Source of the DNA: Eledone cirrhosa
Taxonomy: Eukaryota
NCBI GenBank assembly: GCA_964016885.1
Contig: OZ024740.1
Location: 57,412,001 to 57,476,000 of the forward strand
DNA: 64,000 nucleotides
Direction: 5' to 3'
Shown here: positions 3,143-60,194 of the stretch, piece by piece
Layout: every line of letters starts with the position of its first letter
Position numbering within the stretch: position 1 is the stretch's first letter
Notes under the pieces: generated by a model
The model's database searches: none
Told to the model about the DNA's origin: nothing
What the model saw: the letters and a program-made list of their open reading frames with translations, nothing else
Program-made: the position numbers and the translations under genes

Positions 3143-3733
3143 TATATATTAGAAAGTGAGGTTTCTTTACAAAATGAAAAAAAAAACGAGATGCCCTACA
3201 CGAGTGAAAGTATAAGGAAAAAAGATGAAACCGAAAATGCAACTGGAGTCTTTTTTTTTTAAATATATTTATTTGGTTCCTTTACCGGTTTCGTAGTTCT
3301 TGTGCTTTTCAAAAGTAGAATTGAGATGAAGGGTTTGTGGTTTTTCAAAAACTGAGAAAAACCACAAACCCTCCATCTCAATTCTACTTTTGAAAAGCAC
3401 AAGAACTGCGAAACCGGTAAAGGAGCCAAATAAATATATTTTAAAAAAAAAGACTCTAGCTGCATTTTCGATTTCATCTTTTTCCTTATATATATATATA
3501 TATGGGGGGGGGGGGTAAAAGGTAAACAGAAATAACAACACAATCGGTACAGTATATGGAAGGTATATATTAGGTTAGCGCTTGATATAGCAGGAAGAGG
3601 GTCTTAACGTTTCGGACGCTAGTCCTTCATTAGAAGAAAGAATGAGAAATAAAATAGATTGAGGGGACATGTGGGCTGGAATTGGAAAACAATGTCTTTA
3701 GATAAAAATAACAGGTGTACATTCATGTGGACA

Positions 3734-3826
<93 letters not shown>

Positions 3827-4241
3827 ATACATTAACAGAGAAAGCTTTAAGCTATACTCTGACTGGCTTCCATCTCACTCAACAAACATTAGGATATACC
3901 TTAGTATAATCCCAATTTTACGTTTGGGGTGCTAACTATATGTATTTTGCGGATAGCCAGTTGTATTATTTTATATGAGACATAATTAAAATACATCTCC
4001 CTTTCCAAACAATTGTTTCATTATAAGTTTTCTACAAGTTGGGAAAATGTGTCCAGGTTATGTAGAAGCCTGCACATAGTCAGTAGGAATATATGCAGGT
4101 GGGCACTTATAAATCATCAGTGGATGCCCGTCAAACATCGATATATAAAAAAACTTTCTTACCGATATTCAATGTCTTACGATGTTCCCTCTCCGTATCA
4201 GAAAGACCGCCAAATTTGAAATTCCAGCAGTCTCAAAAGTG

Positions 4242-4905
<664 letters not shown>

Positions 4906-5387: not shown

Positions 5388-6799
5388 TAATTATTTTTTT
5401 TACGAAATTCACTAATCTTTTTATTTTAATGTTTGTATATTCTCAGACACTTCGATCTTCTCTTTCTCACTTCTCCTTCTGTGTATACCTTCACTTCTAG
5501 GCTAATATGTTGGACTTTGTTTCCATCTCTCCTTTCCAGTTGCAGCACATTGGTTTGTAACAAATTTTATTTCATTTGTAAATAGTCGAAAGGCCAATCG
5601 TCCTGCCCTGTGTCCATTGTGTTACTATCCCACGTGCACTGTTGCTAGTGCAATCGAACTTAAATACCAAAATCACGAGGACCGCCAGCGGTCGACTAAT
5701 GTGAAGGGACTGTCCTGTGTTTCGTCCGTTGCCTTCACCCATTTTTCAAAATTTATTTTGTATGATCTTAGTCACGTGGGACACTTTTTCCAATTGAAGG
5801 TCGGGCGCCATGCTTTGCAGCATGAAGTTACAGCCCCTTTACGGTCCTAGTTCAAATCCCACCGAGGTTAACTTTGCCTCTCATCCTTACGGGGTCGATA
5901 AAATAAAGCACCAGTAATGCAGTGGGATAATTGCTGGTCTTATGCCAAAAAGTAGAAACAATTATATTATATTATATTATTTATTTATGTTCATACACGG
6001 AACATAGTGCTACCATGTCACCAGATTGTACGAGGGATCGAAATTGTGACGTAACATTCAGGCGTTTAGGCGAATTTGAAGATACCGTTAAAAGCATAGC
6101 GCGTTAAAACGCTAGTATATGAAGAAAAAAACGTATTATAAAAAACTGAAATAACTCAAAGATGTAAATTTGAAATAAGAAAGCAGCTTACACACGTATT
6201 CGTGCGTTATAGCAGATGTATGGTATTATGTGGTTGTATGTAATATAGAGATGGTAATATTTATTAAGGTATGGAATAGAGAAGTATAGAGTGTGTACTG
6301 TATTGTGTAAGCGATGAAAAAGAAATAGAACAGAAAAGATATTAAGAAAGTATATAAATCAAATTAAGGTAATTGAAAATCATTTGAATTTCTTGAGTGT
6401 TTCCACTTAGCAAGGATTGGTTTTAAGATGGAGGAGGCATCCTATAAAATTTCCTTCTTTGAATTCAAATAATTATTGTTTGGAAATGACAAACCTTGTA
6501 ATATTCTAAATTTCTCACTAAGACAAGAGACTACATCTATGGAGATATGGTCAATATTGGGCCTTGAAACCGTAGGTAGTGCTTTTGTTCCGTGTATGAA
6601 CATAAGTAAATAATATATGTCACCTCTCTTCCCTGATGGAGCAACTGTTTTCCTTTTTCCTTTTCACACCTATAGATATTTTCTACATATACATATATAT
6701 ATATATAAAGTATTTCCGTAGAAAATGTAAAGGAAAAAAGAGTGCTCTATGTATAGAACAGAGCTATTTAATTATGTCATAAACAACACAATATAATTA

Positions 6800-6870
6800 T
6801 TCCATTACCCAAGGTTTCACGAAGACAGGCGACCTTAACAGAGGCGTCCGAAGTCGTTCATCAGAAGGAA
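6800..6870 (-). ncRNA. Hammerhead with long helix II, in the left arm of a palindrome
   Basis: TTCCTT-CTGATGA-ACGA...TCGT-GAAACC(ttg)GGTA-ATGGAA. Confidence 0.75.
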
Positions 6871-7190
6871 AATTTAATATCTTGTGATGAACGACTTCGG
6901 ACGCCTCTGTTGGGGTCGCCTGTCTTCGTGAAACCTTGGGTAATGGAATAATTATATTGTGTTGCTTATTACATAATATATATATGTATATACATATTTT
7001 CCTTTCAGATAGACGCGCTCCATCATCACCTTTAAAAAAAGGTATATCATACAGAAAACGCCAGCATCAGCAGTTTTCCAAGAGATTGCAACATGAATGG
7101 ACCTGTTATTTTTCTCTAAAAAATCGTTTTCCCGGTTCCGCCCTGCCAGTCTCCTCAATCTTTCTATTTCTTCTTTAATTTCTCATTCTA

Positions 7191-9441: not shown

Positions 9442-10577
9442 CAGAGGTTCTCAAACATTTTGGGCCACCACCCCTCACGGTCACGGAATACCCTCAGTAC
9501 ACCCCACTCCTATTTCTAGAGAGACCTTCCTACACGCAAATTGTAAATAATATATAATAAATTAAATCGTTAATTTATATATAATAACGTTGAAAGAGAT
9601 AGAAGGCTAGACAATGCAACATGGACTGTAAGATGAGGTAACGAAGAGATAGAAGGCTAGACAATGCAACATGGACTGTAAGATGAGGTAACGAAAAGTA
9701 AAATTTACCTGGTAATCTTTGTTGTTTTTTTTTGTTTTGTTTTTTGTTGTTGTTCTTTTATCTGTCCAATATTTCGGGTCATCAGGGTTTAAGGAACTTT
9801 CAGTGGATAATGTTCCAATGTCCTCTCTTTGGGATTAAATTTCGATTTTTATTTAAATTTTTTCTAAGTCGTTTTCAAGCGTTTATATATATATAGTTTT
9901 GCGAGGTTTTGACATGAAATCGTGTGTCGAAACAAATATTGTTATACTTGGGGAGGGTCATATTTGTGTAATATTGCCAGAATTAATAACAGAACATACT
10001 CACTGTTTCGTTGGTTTTCGCTTCTGTATCTTTTACATCAGTTAATTTATTCGGTCCTCAATGTTTACCATTGACTGACCAACGGTCAAAAATACAGATA
10101 TAATATAGACACAAACGCATATACATAGTCTAACAAAGTTATTTCGTTGCACATCTGCAACATCGTCAGTGGTGCTAGTATGTTTCCCCCTGTTGTATTG
10201 TATGTTTACGCCATCTTTATTTAATCTGTTTATTTATTTATTTATTTTTGTGTTCTTCTCTGCGCAGTGTATAGTGTTTGATGTGTGTTCGCAGATTAAA
10301 TAAAGATGGCGTAAACATACAATACAACATGAGGAAACCTAATAGCACCACTGACGATGTTGCAGATGTGCAACGAAAGAACTTTGTTAGACTATGTATA
10401 TGCGTTTGTGTCTATATTATATCTGTATTTTTAACCGTTAGTCAGTCAATGGTAAACATTGAGGACCGAATAAATTAACTGATGTAAAAGATACAGAAGC
10501 GAAAACCAACGAAACAGTGAGTGTGTTGTTATTAATTCTGGCAATATTATTACAGCAATATGACCCTCCCCAATTAT

Positions 10578-10648
<71 letters not shown>

Positions 10649-11642
10649 GAAAAGGCCGATAAGATCAGTAACCTCCGCAGAATCGCTGGCGCCCATACTC
10701 ACGTCGAATGGGGTACTATTAGATTTTAATCCAAATAGAGTCTATTTGGATTAAAAAATCTAATATATATATATGTGTAAAAGTTCTATTTAAATTGTTG
10801 GGATGCAACAAGCAAATATTTTTATAACTGATATAAAGCACTCAACAAATAATTGGAGTAAAAATACGATATTAACAAATGGAAACTATATTTATAAAAC
10901 CATATTTATTTCATTATACATATTTCAAGGACACCAAGTTAAATTATGGTGTGCTTTCATCAGATAAAATATAATATAGAGCAGTTTTATAAATAAATAT
11001 TGACATACCCTTAAAGAATGCAACCATTACTATCCGGGAGCTTCCAACAGTAATGGTTGCATTCTTTAAGGGTATGTCAATATTTATTTATAAAACTGCT
11101 CTATATTATATTTTATCTGATGAAAGCACACCATAATTTAACTTGGTGTCCTTGAAATATGTATAAAGAAATAAATATGGTTTTGTAAATATAATTTCCA
11201 TTTGTTAATATCGTAATATCATCATCATCATCGTTTAACGTCCATATTCCACGCTTGCATGGGTTTGGACGGGGGTTTTTCCACTTGAGGCAAGAGTGGT
11301 TGTCTTGCTCGCATAGGACTGTCTGGCGGGTTTTCTACGGCTGGATGCCCTTCCTAACACCAACCACGTTTACAGTGTGGACTGGGAGGTTTTTACCGTG
11401 TTACCTATACGGCCACATTACAGCGTGGACTGTGTGTTTTTTTGTCGTGACACCTATATATATATATATATATATTAATAAATATATATATTATGTATAA
11501 ATAAATATTACATATTTTTTTTATTTTGCCTCATTTATATATATTTTGATATTTAATATACTATTAGATCATCTCTACTGTCCCCAAGGACTTTCTCACC
11601 ACCATCACTCCCGGGGGGGGGGGGGCACTTTGAGAACTTCTG
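9442..11642. mobile_element. Possible hAT (Charlie-like) MITE expanded by nested insertions
   Basis: TIRs CAGAGGTTCTCAAA/TTTGAGAACTTCTG; TSD only partly matching. Confidence 0.5.
11110..11172 (+). ncRNA. Hammerhead; mirror copy at 10908-10970 (-); family members at 43981-44044 (+) and 39320-39384 (-)
   Basis: ATTTTAT-CTGATGA-AAG.ACACCA...TGGTGT.CTT-GAAATATGTATA-A.GAAAT; helix II differs between family members but stays paired. Confidence 0.8.
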
Positions 11643-14046: not shown

Positions 14047-15776
14047 GGTCAGAGTTAATTATGCTGCAAGCATTAAAACCAAGTTGTCTCCAGTTTGAAG
14101 ATATCAAGACATTCCTCTTTTTCTCTCACCAGTCACAGATGTTCTACTAAAAGGTAAAAGGTACTGGCTTTCCTCCTTTGGCTAAGCCTCCCCCCCCCCC
14201 AAAAGGTATCTTAACCAAACTACCTGAAAGCACACCTGGTTCTATGATACAAAATCGTTTATTTTAAAGTATTATTATTTGAATTTAAACCTTCCATCAT
14301 AAGTAAGAAAAAAATATTGAGTTATGTCTCAAACACCACAAAAAAATTATTTTACTAAACTCTCAAAAATTCCCGATTCCAAATATTTGAAAATCATAAG
14401 TAGCATCTTTCATGAGAAAGATGGTAATGAAAAGCAACAGCAATTTTTTCTGTCTCTGTTGTGATAAATATACTCAAATCATTTTGCTGCCATCAAATAG
14501 TAATTTTAACAATAAATTCTTTACCAAAATGAATAATTAAAGTAAAAGGTAAATGTATATTTCTCTTCCTACAATTTAATAAAATAGTTTTTTTTTTCTC
14601 TTTCAGAGTAGAAGCATTTGTTTTTTTCTCTTTCAGAGTAGAAGCATTTGTTTTTTTCTCCAAGTCCCATTACTAATCAACAGCCAAAGGCTGCTTATCG
14701 TAAAGAATGGAGACAATCACATTTCATCATCATCAATGTTTTTTCATCTATTTTCTATGTTTACATGCATTAGATAGGTTGCCATGGTCTGAGGCAAGAC
14801 AAGTCAGATGACTGCATCTTGTTCATATATGTTCTATTGAATTTCTGATTTAGAACGAGATCTACCACTTTCCTGTTGGAAAAAACTTGATTTGAGCTAT
14901 TGCACTATATTTTACATTTAACATTAAATAATTGTTTCTACTTTAGGCACAAGGCCAGCAATTACCCAGTGCATTACTGGTACTTTATTTTATCGACCCC
15001 GTAAGGATGAAAGGCAAAGTCAACCTCGGCGGGATTTGAACTCAGATTGTAAAGGGACGTAACTATGCTGGAAAGCATGGCGTCCGACCCAATACTGCCA
15101 ATCCACAACTTCCAACCTCAAAAGAAAAACAAAATAACTCAAGCAGTTTATTAATGGAGGAATTTGTAGTTTACTTGAAGCATTGTGTATGGTATATAGA
15201 ATTTGAAATTTGAAAGCCACGATGATGATGATGACAATGTGAAATGGACGGATAAAGAAGTTGAATGAAACAAGATATGTGTTTTTACCTTCGTTTATGT
15301 CCTGATATTTCGAGAATAAACTCTCTTCTTCTGAGGAAAATAAAAGGGACTAATCTAGTGTTGGAACACGCTATACCATCAAACACTGGATTAGTCCCTT
15401 TTATTTTCCTCAGAAGAGAGTTTAATCTCAAAATATTAGGACATATAAATAAACTAAGGTAAAAACATATATCTTGTTTCACTCGACTTCTTTATCTGTT
15501 GTGGCTTTCAAACTTCAAATTCTATAGTTTATTAATCCTTTTGATACCCATACAAGACTGTTTATTTTGAAGTATATATATATATATATATATATGCATC
15601 TAAAACCTCCCATAATAATAATTTTATGTAAGAAACTTTATGTTTCAAATACCAATTTAATAATGAGAAAATTAGTTACATTACTAAATTCTTCCAAATT
15701 TTTTATTTGTAACATGATTTAAGGCAGAGGCATTCATTAAAAATATGGTAACAAAAGAGTTAAATAGTGTAACCTT

Positions 15777-26239: not shown

Positions 26240-27703
26240 TTGAATAAATAATGAATGAATATTACATAATTTATCTACTAAATTTTGTAGCTGTTGATTA
26301 AATATATTTTATTGCTTATTTAAAGATTCACTTCTTTAAAATTTCCAAATGTAACACTTCCGGTTAGCGATCACTTAAATAAACATTCCTATATTTCCGT
26401 CACTAATTTTATCCTAATGCAGTTTATATATAATATCGTCTCTTTTTAATGTATCATGGATTACGTTACTGATTACATAAGAGAGTGTAACACAGTCTTC
26501 GTTCAATTTCTGTGTATTTCTGTGTCAATTACGATTTTATTTGATGTATCATATCTACATGCATATATATACTTGCGTATAATATCAATATGCACACGAC
26601 ACATGTTAGCAGAAAACCACCCTTCAGGTGGTTTTTCTGCTAGTATTTCTGATGAAAGACACTGTTTATGTGTTCCAAATGATTTTGAAAATGACCAATA
26701 ATTTAAATGGATTTAGTAAAATACCTTACATTATTATTATTATTATATCTATGTTTGGAATATAAAAAGTTTTTAATCAAATTATGAAAGGTTTTGATTT
26801 GAACATAGACAATGTAAAATAAGCAGTTTTATATCAAAGAATCCATCTAGAAAAGGTTGGATCTAATTCACTGTTGTTGTTACAGCTCACAACTTTGTAG
26901 GTTTAGCCAACCTTCTATGAAGTTGTACCTCAGTGTAATTCACCCTTCTTCTTCTTCTTCTACTTATTCCTGTGAGGGTTATAGGGGCAGAGTCCTCAAA
27001 CACTCCTTCCAGCAGGCCCTGCCAGAAGCAACCGTCTCCAACTGATCCAGCTGGATCCCCAAGCGTGACCAGCCAAGCCTTATGGATGTTACCCAAATAT
27101 TTTGCTCAGGGTTTACCCCTGGTTGGTTTTACCTGTAAAAACTGTCCAGCAATTCTTTCCTAAGACATTCTAACTACATGCCCATAGTATCGGAGCTGTG
27201 ATCTTTCAATTTGGAGAAGTAGTGGCTCTACCTGGAGTGACTCTCTAAAAAAAGGTTGGATTTAATTTTCTATTGTTGTTACAACTCACACCAATATCAT
27301 CATCATTTTACGTCCACTTTTCCCTGCTTGAAGGGTGGGACGGGAACTGATTCTGGCTTGATTTCTACAGCTGGATGCCCTTTTAACACCAATCTCATTT
27401 ACAGTGAGTGCTGGGTGCTTTTTTTTCCATGGTGCCTACACAACCACTTTACAGTGTGGGCTGGGTGCTTTTTTGCCGTGGCACCTCCACGACCACTTTG
27501 CAGTGGAATGATATAGACCCCAGTCCCTATCATCTCATTTCTACAGCTGAGTAAACTGGAGCAATGTGAAATAAAGTGTCTTGCTCAAGGAAACAACACA
27601 TCCCCCGGTCTGAGAATTGAACTCACAACCTTTCGATTGCAAGGCCAATGCTCTAACAACTAAGCCAGTAAAAAACAATATTTTCATATATATATATACA
27701 TAC

Positions 27704-32672: not shown

Positions 32673-33224
32673 GATAAACATATATAGGATAAAGGATATT
32701 ATAAAGAGTTGCGACCGAACAGCTGAGCCATTTCAACAGCTAGTTCCAGATATGGTCAAGAACTAGCTGTTGAAATGACAAGAGCTCAGCCCTCAGGTCC
32801 CAACTCTTTATAATATAGCCATACTCTACTACCCGAAGTATCAAGTACTCTGTTGAATAATGGTTTAACTAGTTTTAAACTGGTTGCATCCTGGTTTATA
32901 TATATATGTATATTATCATCATCCTCATTTAAATATATATATACATATATGTGCGTGTGTATGTTATGTTGGTACCATAAAACATCCAGCCCACACTGTA
33001 AAGTGGTCGTGAAAAAGAGTTGGCAAAAAGCACCCAGTACACACTGTAAATGTGGTTGGCGCTAGGAAGGACACCCACCCATAGAAAACCAGCCAGAAAC
33101 AGTCCTATATGAGTGAGACACGGTCACCTGACCCAACATGCCTCTGAATGGGACAAACCCATCTAACCCATGCTAGCATGGAAGATAGACGTTAAACGAT
33201 GATGATGATTATATATATATGATG

Positions 33225-38456: not shown

Positions 38457-39257
38457 ATATAAATTACACAATAATCAAAACTATGTTCAAAACATTTTAT
38501 TGCTGACAATCGTTTCTTCCAAACTTTCGTTTGGAATCCTCGGAGCACTAGCAAAGTTTTGACATATAATTAACTTCCTATTCAACTGAACAATCATATA
38601 GATACATGGATATTAATGTTGTCATTAACAGTTTCTATTTACAGAGTGGAATGGATGTGACAGAGATTACAAGAGAATTGTATAATAATTAAAGCAGTAT
38701 AGAGAGTGCAAATGCGTTAGGCATATACAGAACAGTTAGGTAGGAAAGAAGCAATGGTACTAGGCATATATAATTACTGCATGGCAAAGGTATCACATAA
38801 AATAACATAGGTTTACAAGCATATCAAGCAGGCACACTACATCCACCATAAACTCATAATTTTAATACACGAACAGCTTTGTCTGCTTGATATGCTTGTA
38901 AACCTATGTTATGTTATGTGATACCTTTGCCATGCAGTAATTATATATGCCTAGTACCATTGCTTCTTTCCTACCTAACTGTTCTGTATATGCCTAACGC
39001 ATTTGCACTCTCTATACTGCTTTAATTATTATACAATTCTCTTGTAATCTCTGTCACATCCATTCCACTCTGTAAATAGAAACTGTTAATGACAACATTA
39101 ATATCCATGTATCTATATGATTGTTCAGTTGAATAGGAAGTTAATTATATGTCAAAACTTTGCTAGTGCTCCGAGGATTCCAAACGAAAGTTTGGAAGAA
39201 ACGATTGTCAGCAATAAAATGATTTGAACATAGTTTTGATTATTGTGTAATTTATAT
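38457..39257. repeat. Long inverted repeat (~375-bp arms, ~46-bp spacer)
   Basis: 38457-38833 is the near-perfect reverse complement of 38880-39257. Confidence 0.95.
39167..39213 (+). ncRNA. Hammerhead with CCGAGGA (U4C) core; mirror copy at 38501-38547 (-)
   Basis: TGCT-CCGAGGA-TTCCAAAC(gaaa)GTTTGGAA-GAAAC-gatt-GTC-AGCA then AATAAA. Confidence 0.8.
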
Positions 39258-46816: not shown

Positions 46817-47256
46817 ATATTTGATATACCTCATATGAAATAATACAGCTAATTATCCATACAATACAATATAGTTAGCACCCCAAACGATTAATTGGGG
46901 ATATACTCAGGTATTTCCTAATGTTTGTTGAGTGAGTTGGAATTTGGCCGGAGTATCGCTTTTAGCTTTCTCCGATTATGTATTTATATATATATATATA
47001 TATATCAGAATAGAGGCGGAAATAACCAGTTAGAGCATTACTCACCAGAGTACTCGATACTTGGGGTAGTAGAGTGGGTAATATGAAAAATTCGGGACCC
47101 AGACGGCTGAGCTCCTGTCGATTCAACAGCTAGATCAGGTTCGGATCTAGCTGTTGAAACGGCAGGAGTTCAGCTGTCGGGGCCCCGAATTTTTCAAATA
47201 TATATATATAGGAATCAAAGTCGATTTAGTAAGAGATATAAGCTAAAGTTGTTTAC

Positions 47257-52402: not shown

Positions 52403-53552
52403 TTAAGATGGTACTACCTTAGGTATTTCTTTATTTATCTCTATAAGATCTTCTACAAATGCATAGAATGTTATTTGAGCACTTATGTTTTATGTTGTTG
52501 TTTTTGCTATTTGACCTCTGTCGTTTCTGACAACAAATGCTCCCAGTTGGTTCAGTTAATGGAACTGCCAGCTCATGAAATTAACATGTAAGTGCCTAAG
52601 CATTCCACAGACATGTGCACCTTTAACATAGTTCTCAGGGAGATTCAGCATGACACAATATGTGACAAGTTTGGTCCCTTGAATTATAGATACAACTCAT
52701 GTTTGCCAGGTGAGTGGAATGGAACAAGATAAAACAAAGATATCTTGTTCAAGGAAATAATAAACACACTACCAGGTCTAGGAATGGACCTCACAACCTT
52801 ACAATCATGAGCTGAACAGCCTAACCACTAAACCACACATATTCAAATGTTCTATATCCACATAGAAGAATAAAACACATAATATCAATGAGAGAACAGA
52901 CTGGTGGCAACAGCGAGGCCTCCAAGAGAAATTTTGCAAGATGGTAAAAGACCCCTTTTGGGGCCCAAAGCAGACAAAAATTTTTCTGAAAATGGATGTT
53001 GCATGGTTGCTGTGGGGCCTTCTTAGCTCTTGGGCTCTGGAACAAAGTACCGGTTGGACCCCTACCTCTCATAGGCCCTGAGCAACATAGTGTAAATGTA
53101 AATTTGTTTTGTTTTTTTTTTGTTTGTTCTCTTAATGTGAGGTAAATAGTCTAAAACATTATATTCTTAGCAACAACAAATTCATTTCAAACATTCAAAC
53201 ATTTAATAAACTGTTTATATATTTATAAAAATTATTCATTTATTTATTTTTTTTTTTTTTATGCATGATGAAAGTAATATAAAAGCAGCTTTTTGAAAGT
53301 GATATCATTATCATCATCATCTACATCATCAATTAACATCTTTTTCATGATGATGATATTACTTTCAAGAAGCTGTTTTCATATTGCCTTCATCATGAAA
53401 ATAAATAAATAAATATACAGTTTTATAAATATTTAATTTAATTTAATCTATAATTTTTATATGTTAATGATATATAATTAATTTCTGATGCAAATTTCTT
53501 TAAATTGACAGTAGATACATAATTACAAAAATATTACAGTGAATTTTTCAAA

Positions 53553-59938: not shown

Positions 59939-60142
59939 TATATATATATATATATGAAAAGATTCAGGACCCTGACAGCTGAGCTCCAACCGTTTCGACA
60001 GCTAGTTCGGATCTAGCTGTCGAAACGGCTGGAGCTCAGCTGTCAGGGTCCTGAATCTTTTCATATTACCCACTCTGCTACCCCAAGCATCGAGTACTCT
60101 GGTGGGTTATGGTCCACCTGGTATTTTACCACACCCTATCTG

Positions 60143-60194
<52 letters not shown>

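Follow-up and report, generated by a model that had tools for sequence, protein, structure and literature searches.

The window, i.e. the whole stretch of 64,000 nucleotides analysed here, contains at 59952-60066 a near-perfect hairpin made of two 54-nt arms (59952-60005 and 60013-60066) with one mismatch and a 7-nt loop, and its right arm carries the 3' half of a hammerhead ribozyme (the 3' strand of helix II, GAAA, helix III and the GTC triplet). Both features had been described in an earlier note on this DNA and are found as described. The locus raises the question of how a retroelement copy came to lie head to head with itself inside a ribozyme helix, and whether it was the ribozyme that set the site of the inversion, as that note had proposed.

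The hairpin and its homologues in the window

The predicted fold of the hairpin has a z-score of -21.9, and none of 200 shuffled sequences was equally stable. It is followed by a unique tail of ~75 nt and surrounded by (TA)n, and the whole is a fragment of ~190 bp of a Hydra-like Penelope element (PLE). Its parts and two further copies are listed below; signed positions refer to the parent element, in which the G of GAAA is 0 (window position 60022).

59952..60005, minus strand: short (inverted) arm, parent about +45 to -9, beginning at the short PLE 3' end beside (TA)n
60003..60143, plus strand: long arm, parent -19 to +121, with the hammerhead 3' half and the PLE tail; long 3' end in (TA)n
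60003..60005, no strand: TAG common to both arms, a 3-nt microhomology at the junction
60013..60048, plus strand: hammerhead remnant, with the helix II 3' strand, GAAA (60022-25), helix III, the GTC triplet (60042-44) and the helix I 3' strand
60068..60143, plus strand: PLE tail, ~75 nt separating the short from the long 3' end
47010..47196, minus strand (opposite orientation): second copy, long arm ending at -12 and short arm at -17
about 32696..32894-32900, plus strand: third copy, of the older subfamily C, arms ending at about -12/-16, with filler

The 5' catalytic core is not present in the window copy, which begins at -19, the parental core being at -63, and without it the hammerhead remnant is unable to form a ribozyme. 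A60004 lies at -18, where cDNAs end most often (see below), and would correspond to the 5' end of the RNA. The copies at 32696-32900 and 47010-47196 are homologous to the hairpin at 59952, as had been noted; the axis that the three were said to share is common only to within ~10 nt, since their junctions differ (-19/-9, -12/-17 and about -12/-16 with filler). About 10 nt at the centre of the third copy match the native sequence directly behind the catalytic core, which indicates that its template extended upstream of -18. The copy-specific bases that had been reported in both arms of each copy turned out to be mostly subfamily markers. With an arm identity of 98%, the window copy is an outlier (only 5 of 39 subfamily-A hairpins reach 95%, the mean being 89%), and gene conversion may be the source of this identity. 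A general role of the ribozyme structure in setting the inversion site is not borne out in the window, where four other hammerhead- or repeat-bearing hairpins have their axis elsewhere.

The window is very rich in near-perfect fold-backs, further ones being found at 3219-3483, 15327-15417, 38457-39257 and 53282-53379 (arms of up to 378 nt, 99% identity). Long inverted repeats with short loops at 6771-6977, 9993-10527 and 10865-11215 belong to other families and carry CTGAnGA cores in their arms, with a full hammerhead-like motif in both arms of 9993-10527; their axes are at or upstream of the core, outside helix II. Complete type I hammerheads are found at 250-320 and 1651-1695 (Rfam HH9, 33.7 bits, and Hammerhead_1, 31.7 bits; both below gathering), and behind the latter come ~60 nt and (TA)n in the manner of a PLE 3' end. 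There is also a tRNA-like match at 27610-27667 (25.8 bits), and SINE-like repeats (families D7-D9, D17, D19 and D20) are abundant.

The parent element and its ribozyme

The PLE origin suggested in the earlier note is confirmed by parents with a whole ribozyme and an RT/endonuclease ORF in the same genome. A whole tandem parent (loci L365/L318) comprises a pLTR, the ORF, a 3' UTR and a second pLTR; in L365 the pLTRs are at 970-1185 and 4169-4291 and the ORF at 1305-2978, covering residues 8-688 of a 720-aa RT-endonuclease homologue (P0002) in a tblastn search. The tail of this parent belongs to the subfamily of the window copy and its ATG lies at +228, so the window element, including its long arm, comes from within the parent ORF's 5' UTR. 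There are 239 homologues at E<=1e-10, many of them of 700-720 aa, with the RT motif YRDD. The Pfam match is weak (only GIY-YIG, E 0.006, below the cut-off, in one of four homologues); no Pfam match was obtained in the host fragments, and the PDB search was empty. Copies that reach further upstream contain ~1.1 kb of 3' UTR, then the endonuclease-coding region and then RT, and inverted copies are represented by L065, L073 and L155. The parent thus has the hallmarks of PLEs: a single ORF with RT plus, at its C terminus, an endonuclease of GIY-YIG type, tandem pLTRs, inverted 5' copies and an optional tail. The translations of L318 and L088/L077 contain RW(K/R), DKT, the CxCx5C linker, CxxC and CxH, and insertion is into (TA)n; judged from these motifs, set against the clade description in the available text of PMC8557442, the parent is a Hydra-like PLE. 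An initial assignment to Neptune was dropped once the motif definitions were compared. One locus, L157 (G000:C1:438160700-438168700), holds PLE copies in tandem and inverted order that are nested and in which RT segments are duplicated.

The parents bear a complete type I hammerhead with the core 62-63 nt ahead of GAAA, which gives a helix II of ~55 nt with an apical domain. Cores were found in 34 of 73 parent-like copies within the span searched, those of subfamily C lying just outside that span; allowing just 8-38 nt between core and GAAA overlooks true parents. The GTC triplet is present in 22 of the parent-like copies with a core, and mean pairing is 3.1/4 for helix I, 4.3/5 for helix III and 10.2/13 for helix II. 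The core, GAAA, an NUH triplet, three helices and the 3-8 pair are all in place, as predicted for a type I hammerhead from its sequence. Rfam hammerhead models gave no match in 11 parent loci because helix II is ~55 nt long, and minimum free energy folds of single decayed copies mostly fail to give the hammerhead fold. The 3-8 core pair is C-G in 7, U-G in 12, U-A in 14 and C-A in 1 of the 34 cored copies, and drifts from C-G through U-G to U-A across subfamilies (e.g. L065, L088, L226), a compensatory path suggestive of selection on the ribozyme; U3-A8 is a known variant of PLE hammerheads, going by the portion of PMC4209133 at hand. The axis of the window hairpin, which the earlier note had placed at the helix II loop, is in the 3' strand of helix II, and not one of 102 oriented hairpins retains the native helix II loop; scanning the genome with a strict pattern for this loop in a palindrome likewise gave 0 matches, a result that is weak alone.

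Two 3' ends and a common stop site

Short dead PLE copies of this kind, among them the window hairpin, number many thousands. The 3.0-Gb genome of the species has 5,297 first-look candidates (40 of them scored); a 35-nt arm motif is matched exactly 1,546 times, and hairpin centres with <=30 nt separating the arms are matched exactly 1,363 times. Nearly all copies in this lineage are fragments of 60-190 bp, and a hand count of 18 inserts over 510 kb (contigs C1-C4 only) puts their density at ~35 per Mb. Copy anatomy was read from 97 arms among the first 100 of the 1,546 matches, the other three hitting an element or stretch already counted; they were picked only for an exact match to -5 to +29, blind to the junction.

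The copies have two independent 3' ends, a short one at +43/45 and a long one at +120. The 97 arms comprise 60 long/short head-to-head pairs, 18 short-only copies, 14 long-only copies and 5 that are unclear, i.e. a hairpin is a long arm with the PLE tail joined to a short arm without it, and each arm is also found alone. Short-ended copies also extend into the ORF (L088, L122), which together with the short-only copies indicates independent priming at the short end. Among the 60 pairs are 17 in which the long arm halts at +7 to +70 and the short arm reaches -5 or beyond; the tallies of these pairs (32/17/11) are soft, a few near-symmetric junctions being assigned to the wrong arm (e.g. L272), and the 17 clear cases are those relied on. 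A self-primed cDNA cannot give pairs in which the short arm runs past the long one, so both ends are primed independently. Among second long arms, 8 of 35 halt at +34 to +42, adjacent to the short start, which recalls twin priming. A small tail-anchored incidental sample (16 arms) is in agreement.

The other end of the arms is sharply limited. The breakpoints are, as the earlier note implied, non-random and strongly clustered within helix II: 81 of the 97 arms end at -21 to -5, with a mode at -18 (14 arms), 9 end at -33 to -22 and 7 beyond -33, so that 16 pass -21. Of 59 arms reaching -16, 38 halt within -16 to -19, which amounts to 23% per nt compared with 4% per nt before (two or three near-symmetric junctions may be misplaced in these counts). 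Non-inverted copies abutting (AT)5 start at -18/-19 in 54 of 60 loci and continue with native sequence in 6, as tallied by hand among the first 100 of 242 matches with a pattern covering only -18 to -24. The same stop in non-inverted copies makes it an end point of the cDNA, and not a fold-back point. In a random 510 kb covering all subfamilies, with one edge-cut arm dropped, 18 of 26 arms end at -21 to -5 and 3 beyond -33. A second cluster of cDNA ends at -29 to -31 accounts for 6 of the 97 arms; these (L177, L217, L245, L250, L258, L262) belong to subfamily E, and their ends coincide with a TA step next to a CTAAY motif. The cluster may reflect a start site of minor use; a stop at a branch point is less likely.

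The base at -18 is the A of YAGT in 11 of 11 parent copies (subfamilies A, B, C and E) despite differing upstream sequence and structure. We take YAGT to be initiator-like, with an MTE-like and a partial DPE-like sequence at the expected spacing. An extra G before A(-18) occurs in 8 of 42 cases, and at a control site in 1 of 29 (p = 0.07); C is equally enriched (12 of 42), and the G is no more than suggestive of a copied cap. From this context, position -18 would be a Pol II transcription start inside helix II. According to the accessible parts of the literature, PLE pLTRs hold transcription start sites (PMC8557442; PMC2377424) and an Inr-like motif (PMC3846280); for Penelope of D. virilis, our own reading of those of PMC2377424 and PMC4209133 places the start upstream of the ribozyme. 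Two other sources of the stop were considered and rejected: YAG at -19 to -17 as a splice acceptor, where the modal end retains AG and the fillers show no common upstream exon, and ribozyme cleavage as the main terminus, where ends at +20 to +22, near the cleavage site, number just 3 among 65 second arms.

The hairpin centres are heterogeneous, with 90 distinct centres in 105 hairpins and short microhomologies or filler between the arms, which indicates that junctions were made per copy, as the earlier note had held. Both arms are of the same subfamily in 82 of 87 hairpins (33.9 expected). A general homogenisation of arms was rejected (intra-copy identity 0.888/0.895, inter-copy 0.871/0.888). 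In a set that includes loci chosen for their likeness to the window copy, the two arms share 25 non-CpG variants, compared with 7.4 +/- 2.5 expected, and in the exact-hairpin-centre subset alone 9 compared with 3.8; most of the differences (242 non-CpG) are not common to both arms, which makes the signal of one template modest. As a rule both arms probably stem from one source and later decay apart. Majority differences separating long from short arms are absent, and short-short identity is not above long-short identity. In L239 (G000:C1:232308900-232309700) a subfamily-B long arm is joined to a subfamily-E short arm through 29 nt of A/T filler, so the template is not always one RNA.

Routes to the hairpins and comparison with known systems

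The hairpins probably arise by dual target-end priming at the two PLE start sites, with cDNA run-off at the RNA 5' end inside helix II and head-to-head end-joining. An RNA initiated at -18 would lack the catalytic core, and so would not self-cleave. The enzyme would bind near the 5' end of this uncleaved RNA, and both ends of the cut (TA)n target would prime reverse transcription at the two start sites, one RNA, or one source locus, usually serving both primers. The cDNAs, of about 61 and 138 nt, would run off the RNA 5' end and be joined head to head by host microhomology-mediated repair; where the two overlap on a single RNA, strand displacement would be required. According to the available text of PMC11167929, both target strands are cut and extended by a PLE in vitro, with RT starting at two sites that bound the tail. 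The scheme brings together features read directly from the copies, namely the parentage, the two 3' ends, the sharp limit at -18, the per-copy junctions and arms of one copy that come from the same subfamily; the hairpin would then be a by-product of symmetry and not of ribozyme folding. Against a single start at -18, the 16 arms beyond -21 and the cluster at -29 to -31 demand other starts or read-through RNA, and near-symmetric junctions are explained equally well by snap-back.

Dual priming could also be combined with a stall of RT at -18, in the long helix II or at a bound protein, in place of the end of the RNA. This is unlikely, although the stop zone lies entirely within helix II, below the apical stem, the 32696 copy apparently skips the apical domain, and helix II pairing is kept in the parents. 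RT would be expected to stall where a stem begins, yet only 1 of 65 unselected second arms ends there (-1 to -4), and the same stop base is used in subfamilies whose apical stems begin at different positions. Somewhat less likely still as the general route is self-priming, in which the cDNA reaches about -18, snaps back on a palindrome of 2-4 nt (TAG/CTA, GATC) and copies itself, later deletions causing the asymmetry. It fits the window junction exactly (3-nt microhomology, 7-nt loop), and for the window copy taken alone snap-back and dual priming fit equally; it would also account for source variants common to both arms, and it has been proposed for junction palindromes of PLEs, as far as the text of PMC3846280 at hand goes. 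The short-only copies (18 of 97), the short-ended copies entering the ORF and the 17 of 60 pairs with a far longer short arm speak against it, as does L239 with its two subfamilies; in TAG-type junctions read by hand, the loop bases come from the long arm in 9 and from the short arm in 6. Priming on the helix II hairpin itself, as in the earlier note, is further contradicted by the absence of the native loop. Self-priming may yield a minority of copies; as a general route it is largely refuted.

It is improbable to a much greater degree that long inverted PLE insertions were later collapsed by deletion of the palindrome centre, halting in helix II by chance or microhomology: there are long inverted copies whose junctions vary (L057, L065, L073, L043, L044), and within-arm deletions in some copies, but the sharp -18 edge in non-inverted copies joined directly to (TA)n is left unexplained, and deletion between the helix II direct repeats would retain the native loop, which the hairpins lack. 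A MITE-like or master hairpin copied as a unit is hardly credible; the fixed outer ends and TA context that recall one are the start sites of the PLE, the centres differ from copy to copy, and the left arms form no separate lineage. A MITE or foldback DNA transposon was accordingly rejected on the arm comparison, in agreement with the earlier note. Non-LTR retrozymes, defined as tandem monomers each with a complete hammerhead (in the part of 10.64898/2026.07.22.740005 available), were also rejected, the copies being dispersed, head-to-head and without a core.

Beyond dual priming with run-off, it is conceivable, if doubtful, that PLE integration is intrinsically two-ended, a dimeric enzyme priming both target ends at the sites that define the tail, so that every head-to-head pLTR would be a footprint of dual TPRT. 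With the promoter inside its own ribozyme, self-initiated RNA would escape cleavage and give only run-off cDNAs of 60-140 nt. The copies might be re-transcribed, because each keeps the putative Inr, the downstream promoter elements and both RT start sites, and might multiply as a SINE-like Pol II family with about 10^5 inserts, filling the genome with ready-made dsRNA hairpins. At ~35 inserts per Mb the hairpins would be a large source of short-loop dsRNA.

In twin priming of LINE-1, the second target end primes internally and a 5' inversion results that is joined by microhomology, the arms being without overlap. The copies in which the long arm halts at +34 to +42 resemble this, whereas here an overlap of ~55 nt between the arms is usual and produces a palindrome, and the second primer acts at a fixed site.

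Among PLEs, the parent shares with the Hydra clade (Craig et al. 2021, PMC8557442, as far as its text was available) the single ORF of ~710 aa with RW(K/R), DKT, the CxCx5C linker and the CxxC + CxH endonuclease, the pLTR hammerhead, (TA)n targeting, tandem and inverted copies and the optional tail; it differs in a helix II of ~55 nt, a tail of ~75 nt compared with 30-40, a 3' UTR of ~1.1 kb and copies that are nearly all fragments of 60-190 bp. The same source names the origin of tandem and inverted PLE insertions as an open task, and dual priming with run-off would account for these long-puzzling inverted ends. In the literature consulted neither dual priming nor run-off was found described for PLE hairpins; subscription papers, Repbase or supplements may hold one. 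The PAc element (Poseidon) studied in vitro (Frangieh et al. 2024, PMC11167929) is of another clade, and inverted hairpins or a run-off site are not derived in the available text; it is alike in having two RT start sites that bound the tail, close to where the ORF begins and downstream of the hammerhead, in the cutting and extension of both target strands, in AT-rich targets and in that cleavage is not needed. The genomic tail and inversion are thereby tied to two start sites and two-strand extension in vitro, and the model predicts an exact transcription start. The present family supplies thousands of minimal insertion products in which both ends and the junctions can be mapped. Closest are the inverted pLTRs of Penelope in Adineta (Arkhipova et al. 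2013, PMC3846280, in the parts at hand), already published as head-to-head, with a tail on one arm, a junction palindrome and an Inr-like pLTR motif. For the few copies there, self-priming on an antisense template was proposed; the evidence here argues against it as the general route, the thousands of minimal copies pointing instead to two target-primed cDNAs and one stop site.
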